This document shows positions 25,677-56,588 of a DNA stretch of 64,000 bases, piece after piece. The notes beneath the pieces were generated by a model, which saw nothing but the letters and a program-made list of their open reading frames with translations, did not search any database and had not been told where the DNA came from. The position numbers were made by a program, and so were the translations under genes. Each line of letters opens with the position of its first letter. Position 1 is the first letter of the stretch. The DNA comes from an uncultured bacterium (GTDB lineage: Bacteria; Patescibacteriota; Minisyncoccia; Phycocordibacterales; UBA9973): positions 65,714-129,713 of the forward strand of contig CAITGV010000002.1 of the NCBI GenBank assembly GCA_903892035.1, read 5' to 3'.

Positions 25677-27119
25677 TTATTTTTCTAAAGTACAAATCTT
25701 CTTACTCAATAAATGACCGTTTTCATTTACATCATAAATTAAAATATTACAAAAAATCATTTCCACATTTTGAATTTCCTCATCTGAAATATTTTCAATA
25801 TATTTCATCAATGCTCGTATCGCATTACCGTGAGATACCATCAATACATTTTTACCGTCCTTCAGCAAAGGTAGTATTTTTTCCAAATAAAATGGAACTA
25901 CGCGATCATAAACCATTTTCAAAGTTTCTCCATTTGGTACTGGGTAGTCCCAGCCACGACGTAATTTTTCAAATTCCTCTTCACCAATTAATTTCTCTAC
26001 TTCCCATTTATTTTTCCCAGTATAATCACCGTAACTTCTTTCATTTAGTGCACTTACGTGCTCAGTAGGTACATCATACTGACAATCTTCATCTAAAATA
26101 CATGTTAGAGTTTCAATAGAGCGGACTTGCATAGAAGCAAAAGCGTAGTCAAATTTTACATCTTTAATTAATTTTCCCAATTCTTCAGAAAGCTCGAAAC
26201 CTTTTGGGGTAAGATGAATGTCTCGTGAGCCAGTCCAAAGTCCCTTTTCATTCCACTCCGATTCTTGGTGTCGTGCCACATACAATTTACCCATTTTTTT
26301 AATATTTTCACATTTATCTTCAAAACAAATCGTCAGTTTTTTATTGGGATGATTTTCACTTTCTAAGATAATTTTATTCATCATATCTACTGCTTCAACT
26401 GGATATTTCCCAATTGCCGTTTCTTCTGAAAGCATCACAGCACTTGTACCTTCGACAATAGCGTCAGCAACATCAGAAACTTCAGCTCTTTCCGGTGTAG
26501 AATTATTTGTCATTGATAACATCATCTCTGTTGCGACAATTACAGGAATTTTTGCTATATTTGTTTTTGCAACTATAGATGCTTGAATAAATGGAATTTG
26601 CTCAAGTGGTATTTCTTTACCCAAATCCCCTCTTGCGATCATTATAGCATCTGAAACCGCAATAATTTCATCTATATTATCTACAGCAATTTTTCTTTCA
26701 ATTTTTGAAATTAATTTAATTTTTCCAGCAAATTCCTTAATGGCATTTTTATATGAAATTACATCATCTGCAGAACCAACAAATGATGCAGCTACATAAT
26801 CAAAATTATTTTTTATACCAAAAGCCAAATGCTTTTTATCTTCATCATTTATAGTAGAACTTTCTGTCCTGTCGTATGTATGTGAACTATCTAACTGAAT
26901 TCGAGGACCTGGTAAATCTTGTAACAAAAATATTTTCTTATTGTATTTTTTTTCAACTTCTCGAATCATTTCAATTTGCTTCATTCGAGTCTCATCGTCT
27001 ACCCATGAAAAATTGAAGCGAACAATATCGAGCCCAGCTTCAACCATTTTCGAAAAAACCTCAATACTACTTGATGCTGGACCAATAGTAGCAATAATTT
27101 TAACTTTTTTATTTTCCAT
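25677..27119 (-). CDS. fusion protein: pyruvate kinase A-domain (no B or C domain) plus 2,3-BPG-dependent phosphoglycerate mutase (histidine phosphatase)
   Basis: N-terminal half matches the PK barrel (KIIATIGPAS, MIARGDLG, ATEMMLSM, MLSEETA) but lacks the lid and C domain. C-terminal half has dPGM motifs (ARHQESEWNEKGLWTGSRDIHLTPKG, MVSHGNAIRAL). Confidence 0.75.
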   Translation of the reverse strand: MENKKVKIIATIGPASSSIEVFSKMVEAGLDIVRFNFSWVDDETRMKQIEMIREVEKKYNKKIFLLQDLPGPRIQLDSSHTYDRTESSTINDEDKKHLAFGIKNNFDYVAASFVGSADDVISYKNAIKEFAGKIKLISKIERKIAVDNIDEIIAVSDAIMIARGDLGKEIPLEQIPFIQASIVAKTNIAKIPVIVATEMMLSMTNNSTPERAEVSDVADAIVEGTSAVMLSEETAIGKYPVEAVDMMNKIILESENHPNKKLTICFEDKCENIKKMGKLYVARHQESEWNEKGLWTGSRDIHLTPKGFELSEELGKLIKDVKFDYAFASMQVRSIETLTCILDEDCQYDVPTEHVSALNERSYGDYTGKNKWEVEKLIGEEEFEKLRRGWDYPVPNGETLKMVYDRVVPFYLEKILPLLKDGKNVLMVSHGNAIRALMKYIENISDEEIQNVEMIFCNILIYDVNENGHLLSKKICTLEK

Positions 27120-28371
27120 AATTTAAAATTATATTATTAATTTCCATTAGTCTATTGTATTTCGCTACTCGTTCACCTCTCGCAAGTGATCCAAATTTAG
27201 CTAAATCACAAGACAAACCTACTGCCAAGTCAGCAATAAATGTATCAGTAGTATCACCAGATCGGTGCGAGATAAAGGTCTTCCATCCAACCTCATTTGC
27301 AAATAAAATTGCATCTATAGTTTCAGATAGTGTTCCAATTTGATTTGGTTTTATTAAAGCAGAAGTGACTGAATTATTTTCATTTGCAATTTTCATCCTT
27401 GAAACATTTGTGACCAATAAATCATCTCCAACAATTTCTACTTTATTTAACAATTTATTTTTTAACTTTGCAAAACCTACAAAACTATCCTCTGCTAAAC
27501 CATCTTCAATGGTAATAATTGGATTTGTATTACATAGGTCCACATACCATTCAATTAATTTATCTTCATCCAAGACTTTATTTTCACCATTAATTTTAAT
27601 TTCATAATTACCATTTTTGTAAAAATTCGAGGCTGCTGCATCAATTCCAATTTTAATAAGATTTGTATTATAACCTGCATTATTAATTGCCTTTTCAATA
27701 TAGTCAAAAACTATTTCATTTGTCGCAAGTTTTGGGGCAAAACCACCTTCATCACCCAGACTTACTGCATAACCGTCTTTCTTTAATATTTTTTTTAACT
27801 CAAAAATGATTTCTGAAATTGCTTGAATTTTTTTATTAAAATCTAAAATACCTACTGCACCTATCATAAATTCTTGAATATCAATACCACTGTCAGCATG
27901 AGCACCACCATTTAAAATATTGAACATTGGTTCTGGTATTTTAAATTGATTTTTTTCAGCAAGAGAACCAAGATACTCAAATAATTCAATATTTTTATTT
28001 TTTGCAGAAGCACGAGCAAAAGCAAGGGACACACCAAGTATTGCATTGCTTCCAAGTCTTTTTTTGTTTACTGTTCCATCGAGCTCAATTAAAAATTTAT
28101 CTAAACTCCTTTGGTCAAAATCATGCCCTACAATTTTTTCTGAAATTTCTTTATTACAATTATCAACTGCATTTAGTACCCCTTTGCCACCATATCGAGT
28201 ACTATCACCATCACGAAGCTCCCAAGCCTCGTGTATTCCTGTACTTGCCCCAGAAGGCACAGACGCTGTGCCATTTACTCCATTCACACCGATATTTACC
28301 TCAATGGTCGGATTGCCACGAGAATCTATAATTTCCCTTGCATTTAAGTAGGTTATTTTTTCCATTCCCAT
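27109..28371 (-). CDS. eno: enolase
   Basis: Enolase N-terminal REIIDSRGNPTIEV and C-terminal IKPNQIGTLSET signature. Confidence 0.95.
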   Translation of the reverse strand: MGMEKITYLNAREIIDSRGNPTIEVNIGVNGVNGTASVPSGASTGIHEAWELRDGDSTRYGGKGVLNAVDNCNKEISEKIVGHDFDQRSLDKFLIELDGTVNKKRLGSNAILGVSLAFARASAKNKNIELFEYLGSLAEKNQFKIPEPMFNILNGGAHADSGIDIQEFMIGAVGILDFNKKIQAISEIIFELKKILKKDGYAVSLGDEGGFAPKLATNEIVFDYIEKAINNAGYNTNLIKIGIDAAASNFYKNGNYEIKINGENKVLDEDKLIEWYVDLCNTNPIITIEDGLAEDSFVGFAKLKNKLLNKVEIVGDDLLVTNVSRMKIANENNSVTSALIKPNQIGTLSETIDAILFANEVGWKTFISHRSGDTTDTFIADLAVGLSCDLAKFGSLARGERVAKYNRLMEINNIILNYGK

Positions 28372-38897: not shown

Positions 38898-41666
38898 ATG
38901 CCTCCACACAAAGAAATACCAGAAATACTACTGAAACCATACGACCCAAAAGCGACTGAATCTCGAATATATAAGCTCTGGGAAGAGAGTGGTTTTTTTA
39001 ACCCAGAAAATTGCATCGAAGCCGGAATAATAAAAGAGGATGCAAAGCCATTTACAATAATGATGCCACCACCAAATGTCACTGGAGTACTTCATATGGG
39101 ACACGCAATGATGATTACACTCGAAGACATTATGATTCGTTATAAAAGAATGCAAGGCTACCGCACTCTCTGGCTCCCTGGTACAGATCACGCAGCAATT
39201 GCTACTCAATCAAAAGTTGAAAAAGAAATTTGGAAAAAAGAAGGTTTAAGTAGGCACGATTTAGGTCGCGATGAACTTTTTCGTCGAACGTCTGAATTTG
39301 CACAAAAAAGTCACGATACAATTGTCTCCCAAATAAAAGTAATGGGCGCTTCTTGTGATTGGAGTCGTGAAGCATTTACTCTCGACAATAGCCGAAATTT
39401 GGCCGTAAATACAATGTTTAAAAAAATGTATGATGATGGGCTAATTTATCGCGGACATAGAGCTGTAAACTGGGATCCAAAAGGTCAGACGACAATTGCC
39501 GATGATGAAATAGTTTACGAAGAACGTAAAGCAAAAATTTATACTTTTAAATACTCAAAAGATTTTCCAATTTCAATTTCTACAACTCGCCCCGAAACAA
39601 AAGTTGGTGATACCGCAGTTGCAGTGCACCCCGAAGACGAACGCTATGCTAAATACATCGGTCAAACTTTTCATATTGATGATTTTTGTGGAGTTGCTCT
39701 TGATATAGTAATCATTGCAGATAAAATTGTTGAAAAGGATTTTGGTACAGGAGCTCTCGGTGTGACTCCCGCACATAGTATGACTGACTGGGAAATTGCC
39801 GACAGACACAACTTACCTCGACCACAAGTAATAAATGAATATGCAAAAATGATGGTGGGCGACGATCGTATAAAAGGTAAAAAAACCACCGATGCACGAG
39901 AAGTCATTGTCGAGTGGTTGAGAAATGAGGGACTTTTAGAAGCAGAAGAAGAGGTCTCGCAAAATGTCGGTACAGCAGAAAGAACTGGTGGCATCATCGA
40001 GCCACTTCCAAAACTTCAATGGTTCATCGCTGTAAATAAAGAATTTACTATTCCCTATTCTGAAATTCCTGGAATAAAATCTGGAGATAAAACCACATTA
40101 AAAGAAATTATGCGTAAAGCGGTTGAAAACGAATCGATAAAAATTTTACCAGACTATTTTAATAAAACATATTTTCATTGGATAGAAAATCTTCGTGATT
40201 GGTGTATTTCAAGACAAATCTGGTATGGCCACAGAGTGCCTGTATGGTACGACGGTGTGGGCACTGAAATAATGCCAAAGGAACGTTCAATTTATCTTGC
40301 TAGACATGGTCAATGCGAAGCAAATGTTAGTAATATTATTCCGACACAAAACGATGCAGACACTTCTCCATTAACTGACCTAGGAAAAGAACAAGCAAAA
40401 GCTCTCGGTGAATCCTTAAAAGATAAAAATATTACTCGTATCATTTGTTCTAAAATGAAACGTTCACAAGACACAGCAAAAATAGTGGCAGAAGTTTTGG
40501 GGCATTCTGATGAAATAATTGAAACATGGAACGATTTGCATGAAGTATGTTTCCCAGATGAGCTTGCGGGAAAAGAAAAATCAAAAAATTATAATCCCCT
40601 CGATGAATCTGTATCGCACGGAATGGGAGAGAGCTTAACCGAACTTGAAGATAGAGCTCGAGGTGTAATTGAAAAAATTATAAATTTAGGTAACCCAGGT
40701 GAAGTATTAATTGTGGGTCACGGAGGTTTTAATTCAATACTTAAAGCTGTGCATGATGGACTTCCAAAAGAAAAATTTGTTGAACATAGAAATGTGATGG
40801 GCGCAATGAAAAATGGTTCATGTTTATCACTGCATTTCATGCGTCTTCCTGATCAAGAAAAAGAGGGGCTTTTTCAAGATGAAGATACTCTTGATACTTG
40901 GTTTTCAGCTGGTATGTGGACGTTTTCAACTCTTGGTTGGCCAAACAAAACAGAAGATTTAAAAATTTACCATCCGACAGATGTGCTTGAAACTGGTTAC
41001 GAAATTCTCTTCTTCTGGGTTGCTAGAATGATTCTTATGTCTGGATATGCCTTGGGCACAATTCCATTTAAAAATGTTTACCTACACGGTACAGTTCGCG
41101 ATGGACAAGGTAGGAAAATGAGTAAATCACTTGGAAATGGTATAGACCCACTCGATATTGCAGATAAATACGGAGCAGATGCAGGACGAATGGCGATAAT
41201 AGTAGGAACAGCCGCTGGAACTGATAGCAAAATTTCAGAAGATAAAATTAAAGGCTACAAACATTTTGCAAATAAAATTTGGAATATTACACGTTTTGTA
41301 CTTTCAAATTCTGATATTAAAAATATTCACGCAACTCTAAATGAAAAGGATGGAGCTCTAACGCTCGCTCGTGACACAATATTTAGAGAAATTACAAATG
41401 AACTTGATGAATATAAATTTCACATTGCAACTGAAAAAATTTATCAATACATTTGGCATGAGTTTGCAGATAAAATACTCGAAGATAGTAAAATTATTTT
41501 TACAGATGGTAGTGAAAATGATAAAATTTCAAGAGAAGCTTTCCTACAAGAAACACTTCAGAAATGCTTAGTAGTATTGCATCCATTTATGCCTTACGTT
41601 ACAGAAGAAATTTGGAAAGTTACTGGAAACAACAGTTTGCTAATGATTGAAAAATGGCCTTCCTAA
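38898..41666 (+). CDS. valS: valyl-tRNA synthetase with an inserted histidine-phosphatase (PGM-family) domain
   Basis: PPPNVTGVLHMGH and KMSKSLGN class I motifs, ValRS editing and anticodon domains. Between GHRVPVWYDG and TLDTWFSAGMW (normally about 35 aa) lie about 200 aa with LARHGQCEAN, SKMKRSQDTA and LIVGHGGFNSIL motifs (about 40257..40888). Confidence 0.85.
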   Translation: MPPHKEIPEILLKPYDPKATESRIYKLWEESGFFNPENCIEAGIIKEDAKPFTIMMPPPNVTGVLHMGHAMMITLEDIMIRYKRMQGYRTLWLPGTDHAAIATQSKVEKEIWKKEGLSRHDLGRDELFRRTSEFAQKSHDTIVSQIKVMGASCDWSREAFTLDNSRNLAVNTMFKKMYDDGLIYRGHRAVNWDPKGQTTIADDEIVYEERKAKIYTFKYSKDFPISISTTRPETKVGDTAVAVHPEDERYAKYIGQTFHIDDFCGVALDIVIIADKIVEKDFGTGALGVTPAHSMTDWEIADRHNLPRPQVINEYAKMMVGDDRIKGKKTTDAREVIVEWLRNEGLLEAEEEVSQNVGTAERTGGIIEPLPKLQWFIAVNKEFTIPYSEIPGIKSGDKTTLKEIMRKAVENESIKILPDYFNKTYFHWIENLRDWCISRQIWYGHRVPVWYDGVGTEIMPKERSIYLARHGQCEANVSNIIPTQNDADTSPLTDLGKEQAKALGESLKDKNITRIICSKMKRSQDTAKIVAEVLGHSDEIIETWNDLHEVCFPDELAGKEKSKNYNPLDESVSHGMGESLTELEDRARGVIEKIINLGNPGEVLIVGHGGFNSILKAVHDGLPKEKFVEHRNVMGAMKNGSCLSLHFMRLPDQEKEGLFQDEDTLDTWFSAGMWTFSTLGWPNKTEDLKIYHPTDVLETGYEILFFWVARMILMSGYALGTIPFKNVYLHGTVRDGQGRKMSKSLGNGIDPLDIADKYGADAGRMAIIVGTAAGTDSKISEDKIKGYKHFANKIWNITRFVLSNSDIKNIHATLNEKDGALTLARDTIFREITNELDEYKFHIATEKIYQYIWHEFADKILEDSKIIFTDGSENDKISREAFLQETLQKCLVVLHPFMPYVTEEIWKVTGNNSLLMIEKWPS

Positions 41667-42367
41667 ACAATCAATTTGTTATAGCTCTTTTACTTGGTAT
41701 TGTACCTTCGCTTTTATGGTTACGTTTTTGGATGCGTGAAGATGATATAAATCCCCCACCCTCAAAACTTATTTTTATCACTTTTTTTATCGGTATGGCA
41801 ATGGTAATAGTTGTATTGCCGATGGAAAAATTTTTTCATGACCATATTTCAAATGCTCAGTACCTTACCGTTATTTGGGCTGGACTTGAAGAATTGGTAA
41901 AATTAGCTGCAGTGTTGCTTATTACACTTGGATCAAACGATATCGATGAGCCCGTAGACTTTCCAATTTTCTTTATGGCTTCTGCTTTAGGTTTTGCTGC
42001 ATTGGAAAATACACTTTTTATTCTTCACCCAGTTACAAGTCACAGCACAACAGTGTCACTACTAACAGGAAATTTGCGTTTTTTGGGTGCGACATTGCTT
42101 CATGCTACAGCTAGTGCGGTAATTGGAATTTCTCTTGGTTTAGTTTTCTTTAAAGATAAAATTTCAAAATTTTTTGCTGTAATTGTGGGAATTATTATCG
42201 CTACAGCCTTGCATAGTGTCTTTAATTTTTTTATAATAGATAGTAACGGAAAAGATTTTTTCAAAATTTTTGGTTTTCTTTGGATAATCACAATTATTAT
42301 AATGTTGCTTTTCGAAAAATTAAGAAGAATGAGTACAGCGATGTATGAAACCGAAACAGTTTCGTAA
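41654..42367 (+). CDS. PrsW-family intramembrane protease-like protein
   Basis: EELVKLAAV (EExxK), FAALEN, HATASA motifs in TM helices. Confidence 0.6.
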   Translation: MAFLNNQFVIALLLGIVPSLLWLRFWMREDDINPPPSKLIFITFFIGMAMVIVVLPMEKFFHDHISNAQYLTVIWAGLEELVKLAAVLLITLGSNDIDEPVDFPIFFMASALGFAALENTLFILHPVTSHSTTVSLLTGNLRFLGATLLHATASAVIGISLGLVFFKDKISKFFAVIVGIIIATALHSVFNFFIIDSNGKDFFKIFGFLWIITIIIMLLFEKLRRMSTAMYETETVS

Positions 42368-42392
42368 ATTTGCTTAAGCTTAAAATAAAATT

Positions 42393-42863
42393 ATGTCACA
42401 AAAACAATCTTTTTTTAAAAGAATGCTTGGCCAAGCAAAACTAGATGAAGATACAGAAGCTGTCGTATTAAACGGTAAGCAAATTCTTGATAAAGAAAAA
42501 GATAAAACTTCTTGGGCTGAAGAAGAGCAAGAAGAGGGTGAGCTCACAGTCGATGTGTACCAAACTGCCGGTGAAATTGTAGTTTCTACAATGGTTGCAG
42601 GAGTTCGCCCCGAAGACCTTCAGGTTACAATTACTCGCGACATGATCACCATAAAAGGCAAAAGAGAAGAAAATAAAACCATCAATCAAGAAAACTATTT
42701 TACAAAAGAATTGTACTGGGGATCATTTTCTAGAACAATATTACTTCCTCAAGAAATTGATCCTGAAGAAGCTGAAGCAATAGAAAAACACGGACTGCTT
42801 GTCATAAAGCTTCCAAAAGTGGATAAAGAGAAAAAGACAAATATTAAAGTTAAATCTGTTTAG
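42393..42863 (+). CDS. Hsp20/alpha-crystallin small heat-shock protein
   Basis: Alpha-crystallin domain: TVDVYQTAGEIVV...ITIKG...GSFSRTILLP...GLLVIKLPK. Confidence 0.85.
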   Translation: MSQKQSFFKRMLGQAKLDEDTEAVVLNGKQILDKEKDKTSWAEEEQEEGELTVDVYQTAGEIVVSTMVAGVRPEDLQVTITRDMITIKGKREENKTINQENYFTKELYWGSFSRTILLPQEIDPEEAEAIEKHGLLVIKLPKVDKEKKTNIKVKSV

Positions 42864-54122: not shown

Positions 54123-56588
54123 TTAAAATACGATATTAACCAAACGCCCCTTTACGTAAATAACCTTTTTAATTTCTTTACCTTCTATCCAGTTCACCAC
54201 GGCATGATCTTTCATTGCCATTGCTTTTACTTCTTCTTCATTCATTTCATTTGAAATTTTTATTTCTGCTCGTACTTTTCCATTTACAGATACAGCAATA
54301 GTAATTTCATTGTCGATAACTTTTTTAGGGTCAAATTTAGGCCAAAGAGAAAGGTGTATTGATTTTTTTTCGCCCAATTCACTCCAAAGTTGTTCTGTGA
54401 TATGTGGCGCAAAAGGTGCGAGAATTTGCAGAAACATTTTAAAATCCTTCTCGTCTACAGATTCAGCTTTTTCCATTTCATTTAAACAAATCATCATAGC
54501 TGAAACTGCAGTATTAAAACTCGTCGTCTCAATATCTTCTGTAACTTTTTTTATAGTTTTGTGCAGTGTAGCTTGCAGCGTTAGGTATGCTGAAGAATAA
54601 ATAAAATCTTCGCGCTTTACCCTCTCTACGGGGGCTCCGACACGACTCAGATTTTTTTTATTCTTCAGCATATTCTGCGCAACGATTTTATTATAAATTT
54701 TCCAAACGCGCTCTAGAAATCTTCTAGGGCCCACCATCGAATCTGTACTCCACGATACATGCTGATCAAATGGACCCATAAACATTTCATATACTCGCAA
54801 AGTATCTGCCCCAAAAGTTTTCACAATTGCATCAGGATTTATAACATTGCCTTTTGATTTTGACATTTTCTCTCCACCGTCAGCCAAAATTAAACCGTGA
54901 GATGTTCTTTTTTGATATGGCTCTTTTGTTGGAACCAATTTTAAATCATAAAGAAATTTATGCCAGAATCTTGAATACAATAAGTGAAGAGTTGTGTGCT
55001 CCATACCACCATTGTACCAATCGACGGGTGTAAAATATTTTAAATTCTTTTTCGAAGCAAATTCTTTTTTATTTTTTGGATCTGTATATCGTAAATAATA
55101 CCAAGAGCTTCCTGCCCAGTTTGGCATTGTGTCGGTTTCTCTTTTTGCTTTACCTTTACATTTTGGACATTTTACATTTACCCATTTTGTAATTTCAGCC
55201 AAAGGACTTTCACCATTATCAGTCGGCTCATATTTTTTTACTTTTGGAAGTACTACTGGTAAATCTTTTTCAGGCACAGGTACTACTCCACATTTTTCAC
55301 AATGAATCATTGGTATCGGTTCACCCCAATATCTTTGTCTTGAAAAAACCCAATCACGAAGTTTGTATTTTGTAACAATTCTTCCACCGACAAAATCTGT
55401 AATTTCCTTTCGGGCATATTCACTAGTCATTCCATCAAATTTTCCAGAATTTGTCAGTATTCCATCTCCAGTAAAACATTCGGATTCAATTCCTTGTGGG
55501 TTATTTAAAACCTGCTTCATTGGCAAATTGTATTTTTTTGCAAAAGCAAAATCCCGCTCATCATGCATATCTGCAAATATTGCTCCTGTGCCATATTGCG
55601 CAAGCACAAAATCTGCAATATAAATTGGAATCTCTTCACCATTTACTGGATTTATAGCTTTTACTCCTTTTAACTCAACACCGGTCTTATCCTTATCCTC
55701 AGAAGTACGTTCTATATCTGTTTTCTTTTTTGTATCATTAATATATTTTTCAATTTCACTTAAATTTAAAATTTGTGATTTAATTTTCAAAATCATCGGA
55801 TGTTCTGGGGCCAAAGTTAACGCAAAAGCACCAAATAAAGTATCGGCTCTTGTTGTGAAAGTGGTAATTTTTTCATCACTATTTTTAATTTTAAAATCAA
55901 TTTCACTTCCCTCGCTTTTTCCTATCCAATTCCTTTGTTGAATTTTAATTTTTTCCAAATAGTCCACAGTGTCGAGATCTTTATCGAGCCTGTCTGCATA
56001 TTTTGTTATTGCAAGCATCCACTGCTCTTTGTCGCGCTTTTCTACAGGTGTGCCACATCTTTCACAACAACCAGCAATTACCTCTTCGTTTGCAAGGCCA
56101 ATTTTGTCTTTCGGACACCAGTTGATAGCAATGCGAGCTTTATATGCCAAACCTTTTTTATAGAATTGCAAAAATATCCATTGCGTCCATTTATAGTACG
56201 CTGGATCTGTGGTATTTATTTCTCTATCCCAATCAAAACCAAAACCAAGTTCTTTTAATTGTCGGCGAAAAGTGTCAGTATTTTTCTTTGTAATTGCTTC
56301 GGGTTGTTTACCTGTTTTAATTGCATAATTTTCTGTAGGCAAACCAAAAGCATCCCAACCAATTGGATAAAGAGTATTGTAACCCTGCATGCGTCGTTTG
56401 CGAGTGATGATATCCATCGCAGTATTGCTTCTGATGTGGCCCACGTGCAAACCATCTCCAGATGGATATGGAAATTCAATGAGGCCAAAAAACTTTTTAC
56501 CTTTTGTATTTTTTACAGAATAAATTTTTTTCTTATCCCATTCCTTCTGCCACTTTTTTTCAATTTTTTTATGATCGTAAATTTTCAT
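54123..56588 (-). CDS. leuS: leucyl-tRNA synthetase
   Basis: HVGHIRSNTAMDI HIGH region, KMSKSKGN, LeuRS CP1 and anticodon-binding domains. Confidence 0.95.
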   Translation of the reverse strand: MKIYDHKKIEKKWQKEWDKKKIYSVKNTKGKKFFGLIEFPYPSGDGLHVGHIRSNTAMDIITRKRRMQGYNTLYPIGWDAFGLPTENYAIKTGKQPEAITKKNTDTFRRQLKELGFGFDWDREINTTDPAYYKWTQWIFLQFYKKGLAYKARIAINWCPKDKIGLANEEVIAGCCERCGTPVEKRDKEQWMLAITKYADRLDKDLDTVDYLEKIKIQQRNWIGKSEGSEIDFKIKNSDEKITTFTTRADTLFGAFALTLAPEHPMILKIKSQILNLSEIEKYINDTKKKTDIERTSEDKDKTGVELKGVKAINPVNGEEIPIYIADFVLAQYGTGAIFADMHDERDFAFAKKYNLPMKQVLNNPQGIESECFTGDGILTNSGKFDGMTSEYARKEITDFVGGRIVTKYKLRDWVFSRQRYWGEPIPMIHCEKCGVVPVPEKDLPVVLPKVKKYEPTDNGESPLAEITKWVNVKCPKCKGKAKRETDTMPNWAGSSWYYLRYTDPKNKKEFASKKNLKYFTPVDWYNGGMEHTTLHLLYSRFWHKFLYDLKLVPTKEPYQKRTSHGLILADGGEKMSKSKGNVINPDAIVKTFGADTLRVYEMFMGPFDQHVSWSTDSMVGPRRFLERVWKIYNKIVAQNMLKNKKNLSRVGAPVERVKREDFIYSSAYLTLQATLHKTIKKVTEDIETTSFNTAVSAMMICLNEMEKAESVDEKDFKMFLQILAPFAPHITEQLWSELGEKKSIHLSLWPKFDPKKVIDNEITIAVSVNGKVRAEIKISNEMNEEEVKAMAMKDHAVVNWIEGKEIKKVIYVKGRLVNIVF
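54604..54654. repeat. repeat family R3, copy b, in-frame inside leuS
   Basis: 45 nt identical to 13783..13827; translated on the minus strand as NLSRVGAPVERVKREDF in a variable linker. Confidence 0.8.

Follow-up and report, generated by a model that had tools for sequence, protein, structure and literature searches.

A 64,000-nucleotide stretch of contig CAITGV010000002.1 (positions 65,714-129,713; assembly GCA_903892035.1, from an uncultured Patescibacteriota bacterium, UBA9973), referred to here as the window, contains a valyl-tRNA synthetase (ValRS) gene with a second enzyme-type domain nested inside it. The gene is one uninterrupted and complete open reading frame (ORF) of 922 amino acids plus a stop codon (38898-41666, + strand). 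Judged by its sequence, the nested segment is a full histidine phosphatase of branch 1, of the small PhoE/CobC type, and it takes the place of a short surface loop that in Thermus ValRS folds into a zinc knuckle. The anatomy and the evolution of this insert are well supported; its function is not.

The inserted segment has 208 residues (residues 452 to 659; 40251-40874, on the + strand, as are all features of this gene given below). It begins after ...GHRVPVWY451, where the left flank motif QIWYGHRVPVWY ends (residues 440 to 451; 40215-40250), and is followed by the right flank motif Q660DEDTLDTWFS (residues 660 to 670; 40875-40907). These motifs are the left and right breakpoints of the cassette. 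The insert stands in place of a loop of ~18 residues in insert-less relatives, a net gain of ~190 residues over most of the 95 closest insert-less ValRS. The same segment of Thermus thermophilus ValRS (1GAX) has ~31 residues and a CxxC...CxxC knuckle. The GC content of the insert is 37.0%, and both this and the GC content at third codon positions (GC3) are the same as in the remaining gene.

Pfam family His_Phos_1 (PF00300) matches residues 465 to 628 (40290-40781; E 4.4e-30; 105.2 bits against a cut-off of 21.7; profile positions 1-167 of 194). R469, the nucleophile H470, G471, and N476 (40302-40325) form the RHG motif, within LARHGQCEAN (residues 467 to 476). The second phosphate-binding arginine, R522 (40461-40463), lies in the SxxxRxxxTA motif (SKMKRSQDTA, residues 518 to 527), the predicted proton donor, E549 (40542-40544), in DLHEVCF, and the second catalytic histidine, H608 (40719-40721), in the VGHGG motif (LIVGHGGFN, residues 604 to 612). 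The catalytic set is therefore complete (R469, H470, N476, R522, E549, and H608). In an AlphaFold2 (AF2) model, which covers the whole protein and for which an alignment of 69 sequences was used, a folded alpha/beta domain with the fold of the family spans about residues 459 to 650. The predicted local distance difference test score (pLDDT) of the insert is 83-98 per 10-residue block in this model, and a value of 93.1 was obtained for the insert.

An initial annotation of this DNA had proposed a nested and apparently intact histidine-phosphatase domain in ValRS. Both parts of that proposal were borne out: the histidine-phosphatase profile gave a strong match, the ValRS equivalog cut-offs were passed (see below), the three motifs that it quoted (LARHGQCEAN, SKMKRSQDTA, and the second catalytic histidine) are all located in the insert, and every catalytic residue is kept. 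The span that it gave, 40257-40888 (residues 454 to 664), is the right region, although the exact limits of the insert are those given above. It also raised independent folding as a matter for structure prediction, and the AF2 model places a confident domain there. An intein or other self-excising element was considered and rejected, because Pfam shows only His_Phos_1 and no Hint domain, and the junctions (WY/DG... and ...LF/QD) have no Cys, Ser, or Thr at the splice positions.

By its profile scores, the insert belongs to Pfam His_Phos_1 yet to no characterized subfamily. It falls below the cut-offs of the equivalog or subfamily models for 2,3-bisphosphoglycerate-dependent phosphoglycerate mutase (dPGM), with 25.9 bits for TIGR01258 (cut-off 81.7), 21.7 for PRK14115 (305), and 54.5 for dPGM_arch (225). 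The phosphoglycerate-mutase-family label of the initial annotation is therefore valid at the superfamily level only and fails as an assignment to dPGM. Other characterized subfamilies (CobC alpha-ribazole phosphatase, GpmB, SixA, and PspA) also remained out of reach: TIGR03162 (68.5 bits, cut-off 162.9), PRK03482 (61.9, cut-off 261), TIGR00249 (31.4, cut-off 74.5), and PspA (35.0, cut-off 350).

The rest of the protein is a recognizable ValRS. It scored 860.7 bits against PRK05729 (curated NCBIfam equivalog cut-off, 704) and 791.1 bits against TIGR00422 (curated equivalog cut-off, 612.1), and it was below the cut-off of each of the models for IleRS (isoleucyl-tRNA synthetase), LeuRS, and MetRS. 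Pfam splits tRNA-synt_1 in two, with an N-terminal piece at residues 24 to 467 (profile positions 2-263), and His_Phos_1 stands between the two pieces. The HIGH signature of class I synthetases (H66-M-G-H69; 39093-39104) and the KMSKS signature (residues 740 to 744; 41115-41129) are near-invariant in a ValRS alignment (A3). The CP1 editing domain (about residues 212 to 352; 39531-39953) could be aligned with its counterpart from T. thermophilus ValRS, available as an isolated domain (1WKA/1WK9; E 2.6e-24), and an anticodon-binding domain, Anticodon_1 (PF08264), occupies residues 828 to 921 (41379-41660). For the whole AF2 model (mean pLDDT, 89.1; predicted template modeling score, 0.82), the best structural match was T. 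thermophilus ValRS 1GAX, with a query TM score (TMq) of 0.69. By HMMER register (query residue 664 = 1ILE residue 514), W668 in the right flank corresponds to residue 518 of T. thermophilus IleRS, which lines the amino acid pocket, so that only eight residues separate the graft from a catalytic element.

There was no Pfam match in the window ValRS to the C-terminal coiled-coil arm (Val_tRNA-synt_C, PF10458), which is found in many ValRS but is not universal. Insert-less relatives of ~735 residues are likewise without PF10458 annotation. The missing arm is therefore characteristic of the clade and was not caused by the insert. The arm is present in other insert-bearing ValRS (P0254, P0257, P0277, and P0403). 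Because close insert-less relatives keep their ValRS at the same locus, the window gene most likely encodes the housekeeping ValRS in an ultra-small, Paceibacteria/Nomurabacteria-like bacterium of the Patescibacteria, and it would aminoacylate and edit as an ordinary ValRS does.

The identical protein is encoded on six contigs from two different assemblers; among them are an ENA contig of 157.8 kb and a Logan contig of 7.1 kb. We also searched with the full-length ValRS and compared the best 120 close ValRS sequences. PF00300 is at the same site in 25 of them (~900 to 935 residues, with one of 1001), including KKQ35190.1/UniRef100_A0A0G0H9J2 of Candidatus Nomurabacteria bacterium GW2011_GWB1_37_5, which is named "Valine-tRNA ligase." The other 95 are insert-less and mostly 720 to 750 residues long, with a loop that is mostly ~18 residues. 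In one subtype (P0160, P0163, P0167, P0244, and P0252), the phosphatase is nested inside a Thermus-like CxxC...CxxC knuckle. Two short predicted proteins (P0316, 235 residues; P0318, 214 residues) have the order CxxC, histidine phosphatase, CxxC, like the knuckle form of the cassette; they could represent donors, excised derivatives, or fragments from gene calling. Two other ValRS (P0165, 813 residues; P0186, 829 residues) have at this position, which we call site B, a ~100-residue insert that matches no Pfam family. Therefore, the site B loop is a general insertion hot spot and not one specific for phosphatases. A 1001-residue ValRS from an NCBI metagenome (P0244) has a knuckle-nested phosphatase at site B and also an ASCH domain (PF04266; 24.1 bits against 21.2; residues 682 to 738) at approximately the position of site C (see below).

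Comparison of these genes indicates that the module is accessory and cassette-like. ValRS with and without the insert interleave on a neighbor-joining tree of the core, from which the insert columns were removed, and Fitch parsimony on this tree, where 28 of the 123 tips bear the insert, requires no fewer than 13 state changes. Close pairs differ in little else. Insert-bearing P0134 and insert-less P0149 are 92 to 99% identical in every segment on either side of the site, and insert-bearing P0136 is 94 to 100% identical to insert-less P0166 and P0181 outside the insert. The loci are syntenic (L083 compared with L084 to L086, and L087 and L088 compared with L089), and nucleotide identity within such pairs is ~84 to 95% in most 150-nt windows of the gene. 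Homology ends exactly after ...GTTTGGTAT (VWY) and restarts exactly at CAAGAC (QD), and between these breakpoints nothing could be aligned. Furthermore, insert identity does not correlate with core identity (Spearman, -0.06); for example, the cores of P0237 and P0199 are 83.5% identical and their inserts 37.7%. From these patterns, we infer that the segment has been replaced by homologous recombination through the conserved flanks or has been acquired repeatedly, and recombination via the flanks would be the most likely route of exchange.

The neighborhood of the gene is conserved with or without the insert. Genes for a PrsW-family membrane protease and HSP20 follow ValRS in the window (41654-42863, +) and in L083 to L089, and the window ValRS and PrsW genes overlap by 13 nt. 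One of these loci has a free-standing His_Phos_1 gene (L087:10296-10727; 266 residues, cut by the end of the locus) ~3.5 kb downstream of the insert-bearing ValRS gene. Therefore, the embedded domain is not a simple replacement of a free-standing one in that genome.

Despite this turnover, the catalytic residues persist. We aligned 52 domains that were embedded in ValRS, embedded in IleRS, or free-standing, with overall identities down to 20-45%. R469, H470, S518, R522, T526, and H608 are invariant, and N476 and E549 are conserved at 96-98%. R469 and H470 are also invariant in all 123 scanned domains that cover those positions. Of 55 ValRS-embedded domains, 45 keep the complete hexad (R-H-N-R-E-H), as do 33 of 37 IleRS-embedded ones (78 of 92 in total); those that do not are truncated or, in most cases, additional copies within multicopy proteins. 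Among three insert-bearing genes, the proportion of nonsynonymous differences in the insert (pN, 0.20-0.24) was compared with that of synonymous differences (pS, 0.60-0.79); synonymous sites are saturated and dN/dS is rough, and what can be stated is that pN is well below pS. The dN of the insert was 0.24-0.30 versus 0.08-0.10 for the core, where dN/dS was 0.04-0.07. Therefore, the insert is under purifying selection that is several-fold more relaxed than that on the synthetase core.

The architecture is broader than the initial annotation had noticed: it missed IleRS hosts, several insertion sites, several copies per protein, and presence or absence between close relatives. A word-indexed protein search with the insert alone returned 12 weak free-standing matches and missed known ValRS relatives. 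We also scanned GTDB, one genome per species, with patterns made from the insert alone (a 3-sequence alignment); taxonomic labels are those of the database records. The domain was at the same ValRS site in three further genomes (L003, L004, and L005) and inside the IleRS of nine Patescibacteria genomes (L016, L021, L023, L027, L028, L031, L042, L044, and L055), whose labels include Paceibacterota, Nomurabacteria, Kaiserbacteria, Campbellbacteria, Peribacteria, and others. The IleRS assignment is firm for L027 (895 bits) and L016 (844 bits) against TIGR00392 (cut-off, 621). In both, the insert takes the place of the short linker that human cytoplasmic IleRS has between its residues 490 and 498, upstream of DCWFESG. 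This is the same intermotif region as ValRS site B, and the hosts are type-2 IleRS.

ValRS has two more insertion sites. Site A, which follows ...QWFIxVNKxF and precedes ...WIDNLRDWCISRQ, is occupied together with site B in P0253, P0254, and P0255. Site C, which follows STLGWP and precedes FHPTAVLETGYD, is occupied in P0403. P0257 carries two copies in tandem at site B, P0253 carries at least four overall, and across ValRS and IleRS the embedded domains number one to four per host. Two copies were present in 12 of 23 scanned IleRS and three copies in 1 of 23. IleRS with tandem phosphatases (two or three) were seen in a Peribacteria metagenome-assembled genome (MAG) (L055:2667-7256; two copies) and in P0264, P0267, P0272, P0274, and P0290.

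A profile of the ValRS insert was also run against 1.84 billion representative proteins and gave 1,345 matches at an E value of <=1e-30. Among the best 150 of these, heterologous partners were exclusively ValRS-like (21) or IleRS-like (14), and the other long proteins were pure tandem histidine phosphatases. By similarity, the domains embedded in ValRS group apart from those embedded in IleRS (29-31% identity within each group, 26% between the two), which indicates that the two synthetases recruited the domain separately. Close free-standing homologues of ~180 residues also exist (P0279, P0300, and P0301), and many free-standing relatives are themselves tandem proteins of two to four domains. 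One patescibacterial MAG has three neighboring free-standing histidine-phosphatase genes (L068:4299-6333).

Some further observations concern these proteins and the window. The IleRS at L042:3456-7487 has a phosphatase insert and a C-terminal extension of ~200 residues, which resembles HD/HDIG phosphohydrolases only weakly (PF01966, 26.7 bits; TIGR00277, 18 bits, under its cut-off) and has no solved relative. The LeuRS of the window (54123-56588, -) has no insert. Elsewhere in the window, a 480-residue protein (25677-27119, -) combines a pyruvate kinase barrel (PF00224) with a C-terminal His_Phos_1 domain (residues 279 to 470; E 3e-34). Its motifs RHQESEWN, LNERSYG, and SHGNAIRAL are dPGM-like by eye, not by equivalog model. 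The gene is directly downstream of that for enolase (27109-28371, -). Phosphoglycerate mutase, enolase, and pyruvate kinase are thus apparently clustered, with the mutase in place of the C-terminal domain of the kinase.

What might the nested domain do? We consider it somewhat probable, reasoning from sequence, that it is an active phosphomonoesterase acting on a small phosphorylated metabolite or nucleotide, and that the graft places or coregulates this activity at ValRS and IleRS. The domain would hydrolyze a phosphomonoester independently, via a phospho-His470 intermediate, with R469, R522, and H608 holding the phosphate and E549 acting as the acid. Most likely, the domain and the free-standing enzymes would act on the same small phosphorylated metabolite or nucleotide. 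No group-specific residues separate embedded from free-standing domains, and the enzymes whose solved structures come nearest use small ribityl-, ribosyl-, or glyceryl-phosphates as substrates. This suggests that a small-molecule substrate is the most likely one. The embedded domains are acidic (median isoelectric point, 5.6; net charge, -6), more so than their free-standing relatives, which argues against a generic RNA-binding role. As for the function that the initial annotation had suggested, a moonlighting or regulatory module that might hydrolyze a phosphorylated nucleotide or alarmone, these results speak neither for nor against it.

Two more specific roles were considered. An extra tRNA-binding module is unsupported, given the acidic domains and the lack of embedded-specific conserved residues. 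A glycolytic phosphoglycerate mutase is unlikely, since the dPGM models fail and a separate pyruvate kinase-dPGM-like fusion is encoded near enolase; on these grounds, the insert is probably not the cell's phosphoglycerate mutase. The neighborhoods of free-standing patescibacterial homologues (L007, L012, L013, L017, L034, and L068) revealed no conserved partner gene.

Several points weigh against a small-molecule phosphomonoesterase. The hosts are solely ValRS and IleRS, which a free-acting small-molecule phosphatase does not explain by itself. The domain is nested in core-flanking internal loops at several independent sites, and it is not a terminal fusion. A few copies, mostly extra ones, are without the glutamate or the second histidine, so catalysis is not required in every case. 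Also, the saturated synonymous sites mentioned above limit what can be said about selection, and the core tree is a neighbor-joining tree without support values.

It is possible, but considerably less probable to judge from the same sequences, that the phosphatase works in cis on a synthetase ligand, either healing (pyro)phosphorylated tRNA 3' ends or reversing the phosphorylation of the enzyme by a toxin, or, as a variant, that it is a phospho-histidine switch that gates Val/Ile charging. Cis-acting readings would fit the conflict-like evolutionary pattern. If one is true, then the ValRS and IleRS of Patescibacteria would contain a horizontally exchangeable repair or antitoxin cassette inside the translation machinery.

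The first of these, built-in tRNA end repair, is unlikely when taken by itself. The domain would remove a 3'-phosphate or 3'-pyrophosphate, left by nuclease or toxSAS-type damage, from the CCA end of tRNAVal or tRNAIle and so allow recharging, as a mobile counter-defense cassette. The hosts are tRNA 3'-end enzymes, and among the best 150 matches the domain is fused to these alone. It is also accessory, fast evolving, horizontally exchanged, and variable in copy number, which is typical of conflict systems. Two hosts have further domains that would suit such a role: the L042 IleRS, with its weak HD-type phosphohydrolase region, and the P0244 ValRS, with its ASCH domain, an RNA-associated family. 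Furthermore, toxins that pyrophosphorylate the tRNA CCA end are known; they block aminoacylation, and some are tRNA specific (bioRxiv 10.1101/2021.04.30.441581; PMC11559606). However, the embedded domains are more acidic than their free-standing relatives, they have no conserved surface particular to embedded copies, and among solved structures they come nearest to small-molecule phosphatases. The neighborhoods examined showed no toxin partner, and we know of no histidine phosphatase that acts on RNA 3' ends.

A little less likely again is an allosteric sensor or phospho-switch. Here, the domain would bind a phosphorylated metabolite (a glycolytic intermediate or an alarmone), or be transiently phosphorylated by it at H470, and would pass the change on to the neighboring catalytic elements and so tune Val/Ile charging to the metabolic state. 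Histidine phosphatases form covalent phospho-His intermediates, and some copies without the proton donor retain the phosphate-binding residues. All of the sites flank the core: site A is before WCISRQ, site B is 8 residues before W668, and site C is just before the GYDILFFW strand. However, these loops are classical permissive connective peptide (CP) insertion points of class Ia synthetases, so position alone is weak evidence. Close relatives manage without the module, and tandem arrays of two to four copies are hard to fit with a precise allosteric link.

We regard a cis-acting protein phosphatase as improbable. It would reverse an inhibitory phosphorylation of the synthetase, for example, in the KMSKS loop, or of a partner such as EF-Tu. 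The evolutionary pattern resembles that of a conflict system, and HipA-type kinases provide a precedent, because they phosphorylate GluRS and TrpRS at the KMSKS loop. However, the best structural neighbors of the domain are small-molecule enzymes, no conserved kinase gene is beside the loci examined, and no kinase that targets ValRS or IleRS is known to us.

Just as doubtful is the idea that the domain is a functionless passenger, a structural spacer in a permissive loop that spreads only by recombination through the conserved flanks. It is dispensable, being missing in close relatives, the same loop accepts the unrelated ~100-residue inserts of P0165 and P0186, and the core evolves several times more slowly than the insert, as the dN values show. 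However, 78 of 92 embedded copies retain the hexad although they are otherwise only 20-45% identical, pN is well below pS, and the same family was independently recruited at no fewer than four sites in two enzymes, whereas no other family recurs so.

Finally, an assembly or gene-calling artefact, a chimera or read-through of a ValRS gene and a phosphatase gene, which the initial annotation had named as a possible refutation, is ruled out as far as sequence data allow: metagenome chimeras do occur in these data, but here the domain is nested in frame in a single ORF with ValRS on both sides, the same protein came from different assemblers, its GC and GC3 match those of the remaining gene, and the same nesting was found in dozens of diverged orthologues, at least 25 of them independent sequences from NCBI, ENA, JGI, and Logan. 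A probable chimera in these data is P0003 (352 residues, on a 5.9-kb ENA contig), in which an insert-bearing ValRS passes into a TrpRS/TyrRS-type C terminus (PF00579) right after the shared KMSKSLGN.

The initial annotation had suggested that this architecture was undescribed. We found no description in the literature of a histidine phosphatase nested in a synthetase catalytic domain, and AARS Online (PMC11580382) mentions neither "phosphatase" nor "mutase." The sequences themselves are already in public databases, named "valine--tRNA ligase" or "class I tRNA ligase family protein," and these plain synthetase names hide a second enzyme-type domain, which is an annotation gap. The window gene is one member of a large and apparently undescribed class, in which a nested phosphatase recurs in two paralogous synthetases. 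To our knowledge, extra catalytic domains are uncommon in bacterial aminoacyl-tRNA synthetases, and they have usually led to new biology (editing, signaling, or resistance). In the present case, two essential synthetases of a major bacterial radiation have repeatedly received a second enzyme-type domain within their catalytic domain. The family is also a natural domain-insertion system, which reveals class Ia loops that tolerate a 190-residue fold and offers on/off pairs that are 92-100% identical. It provides a testable lead to a possible connection of phosphoester chemistry with Val/Ile charging in minimal-genome, host-dependent organisms.

The closest known system for the host is T. thermophilus ValRS (1GAX/1IVS), the best sequence match (E 5e-158). 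The core, CP1, HIGH, KMSKS, and the anticodon-binding domain are shared, and the host loop is variable in both, being the ~31-residue CxxC...CxxC knuckle in Thermus. Unlike Thermus ValRS, the window protein has ~190 extra residues that form a second catalytic-type domain, and it is without the coiled-coil arm. For the insert, the solved relatives are small branch-1 enzymes: PhoE (1H2E), the CobC alpha-ribazole phosphatase (6NRU/6E4B), a riboflavin-pathway phosphatase (9MMH), and the phosphoserine phosphatase PspA (4IJ5). They are only 23-28% identical to the insert, and they are free-standing whereas the insert is nested. The insert scores far below every equivalog cut-off, so no substrate can be transferred from these enzymes to it.

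Other proteins resemble the combination. NCBIfam NF040702 (ileS_w_GNAT), an IleRS, is also a class Ia synthetase with an extra enzymatic domain, but that domain is an N-acetyltransferase (GNAT), and the window ValRS is no member (149 bits versus a cut-off of 1999). A branch-1 histidine phosphatase is joined to another module in PFK-2/FBPase-2, in the Rv2228c-type RNase H/acid phosphatase (NF005567), and in TFIIIC tau55, and in the last two it is coupled to nucleic acid or tRNA gene machinery. All three are end-to-end fusions. The pyruvate kinase-dPGM-like fusion of the window comes from the same organism and also joins His_Phos to a functionally linked enzyme, but it too is a terminal fusion. 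Unlike those fusions, the ValRS domain lies inside the catalytic domain of its partner, is polymorphic between close relatives, and is present in up to four copies.

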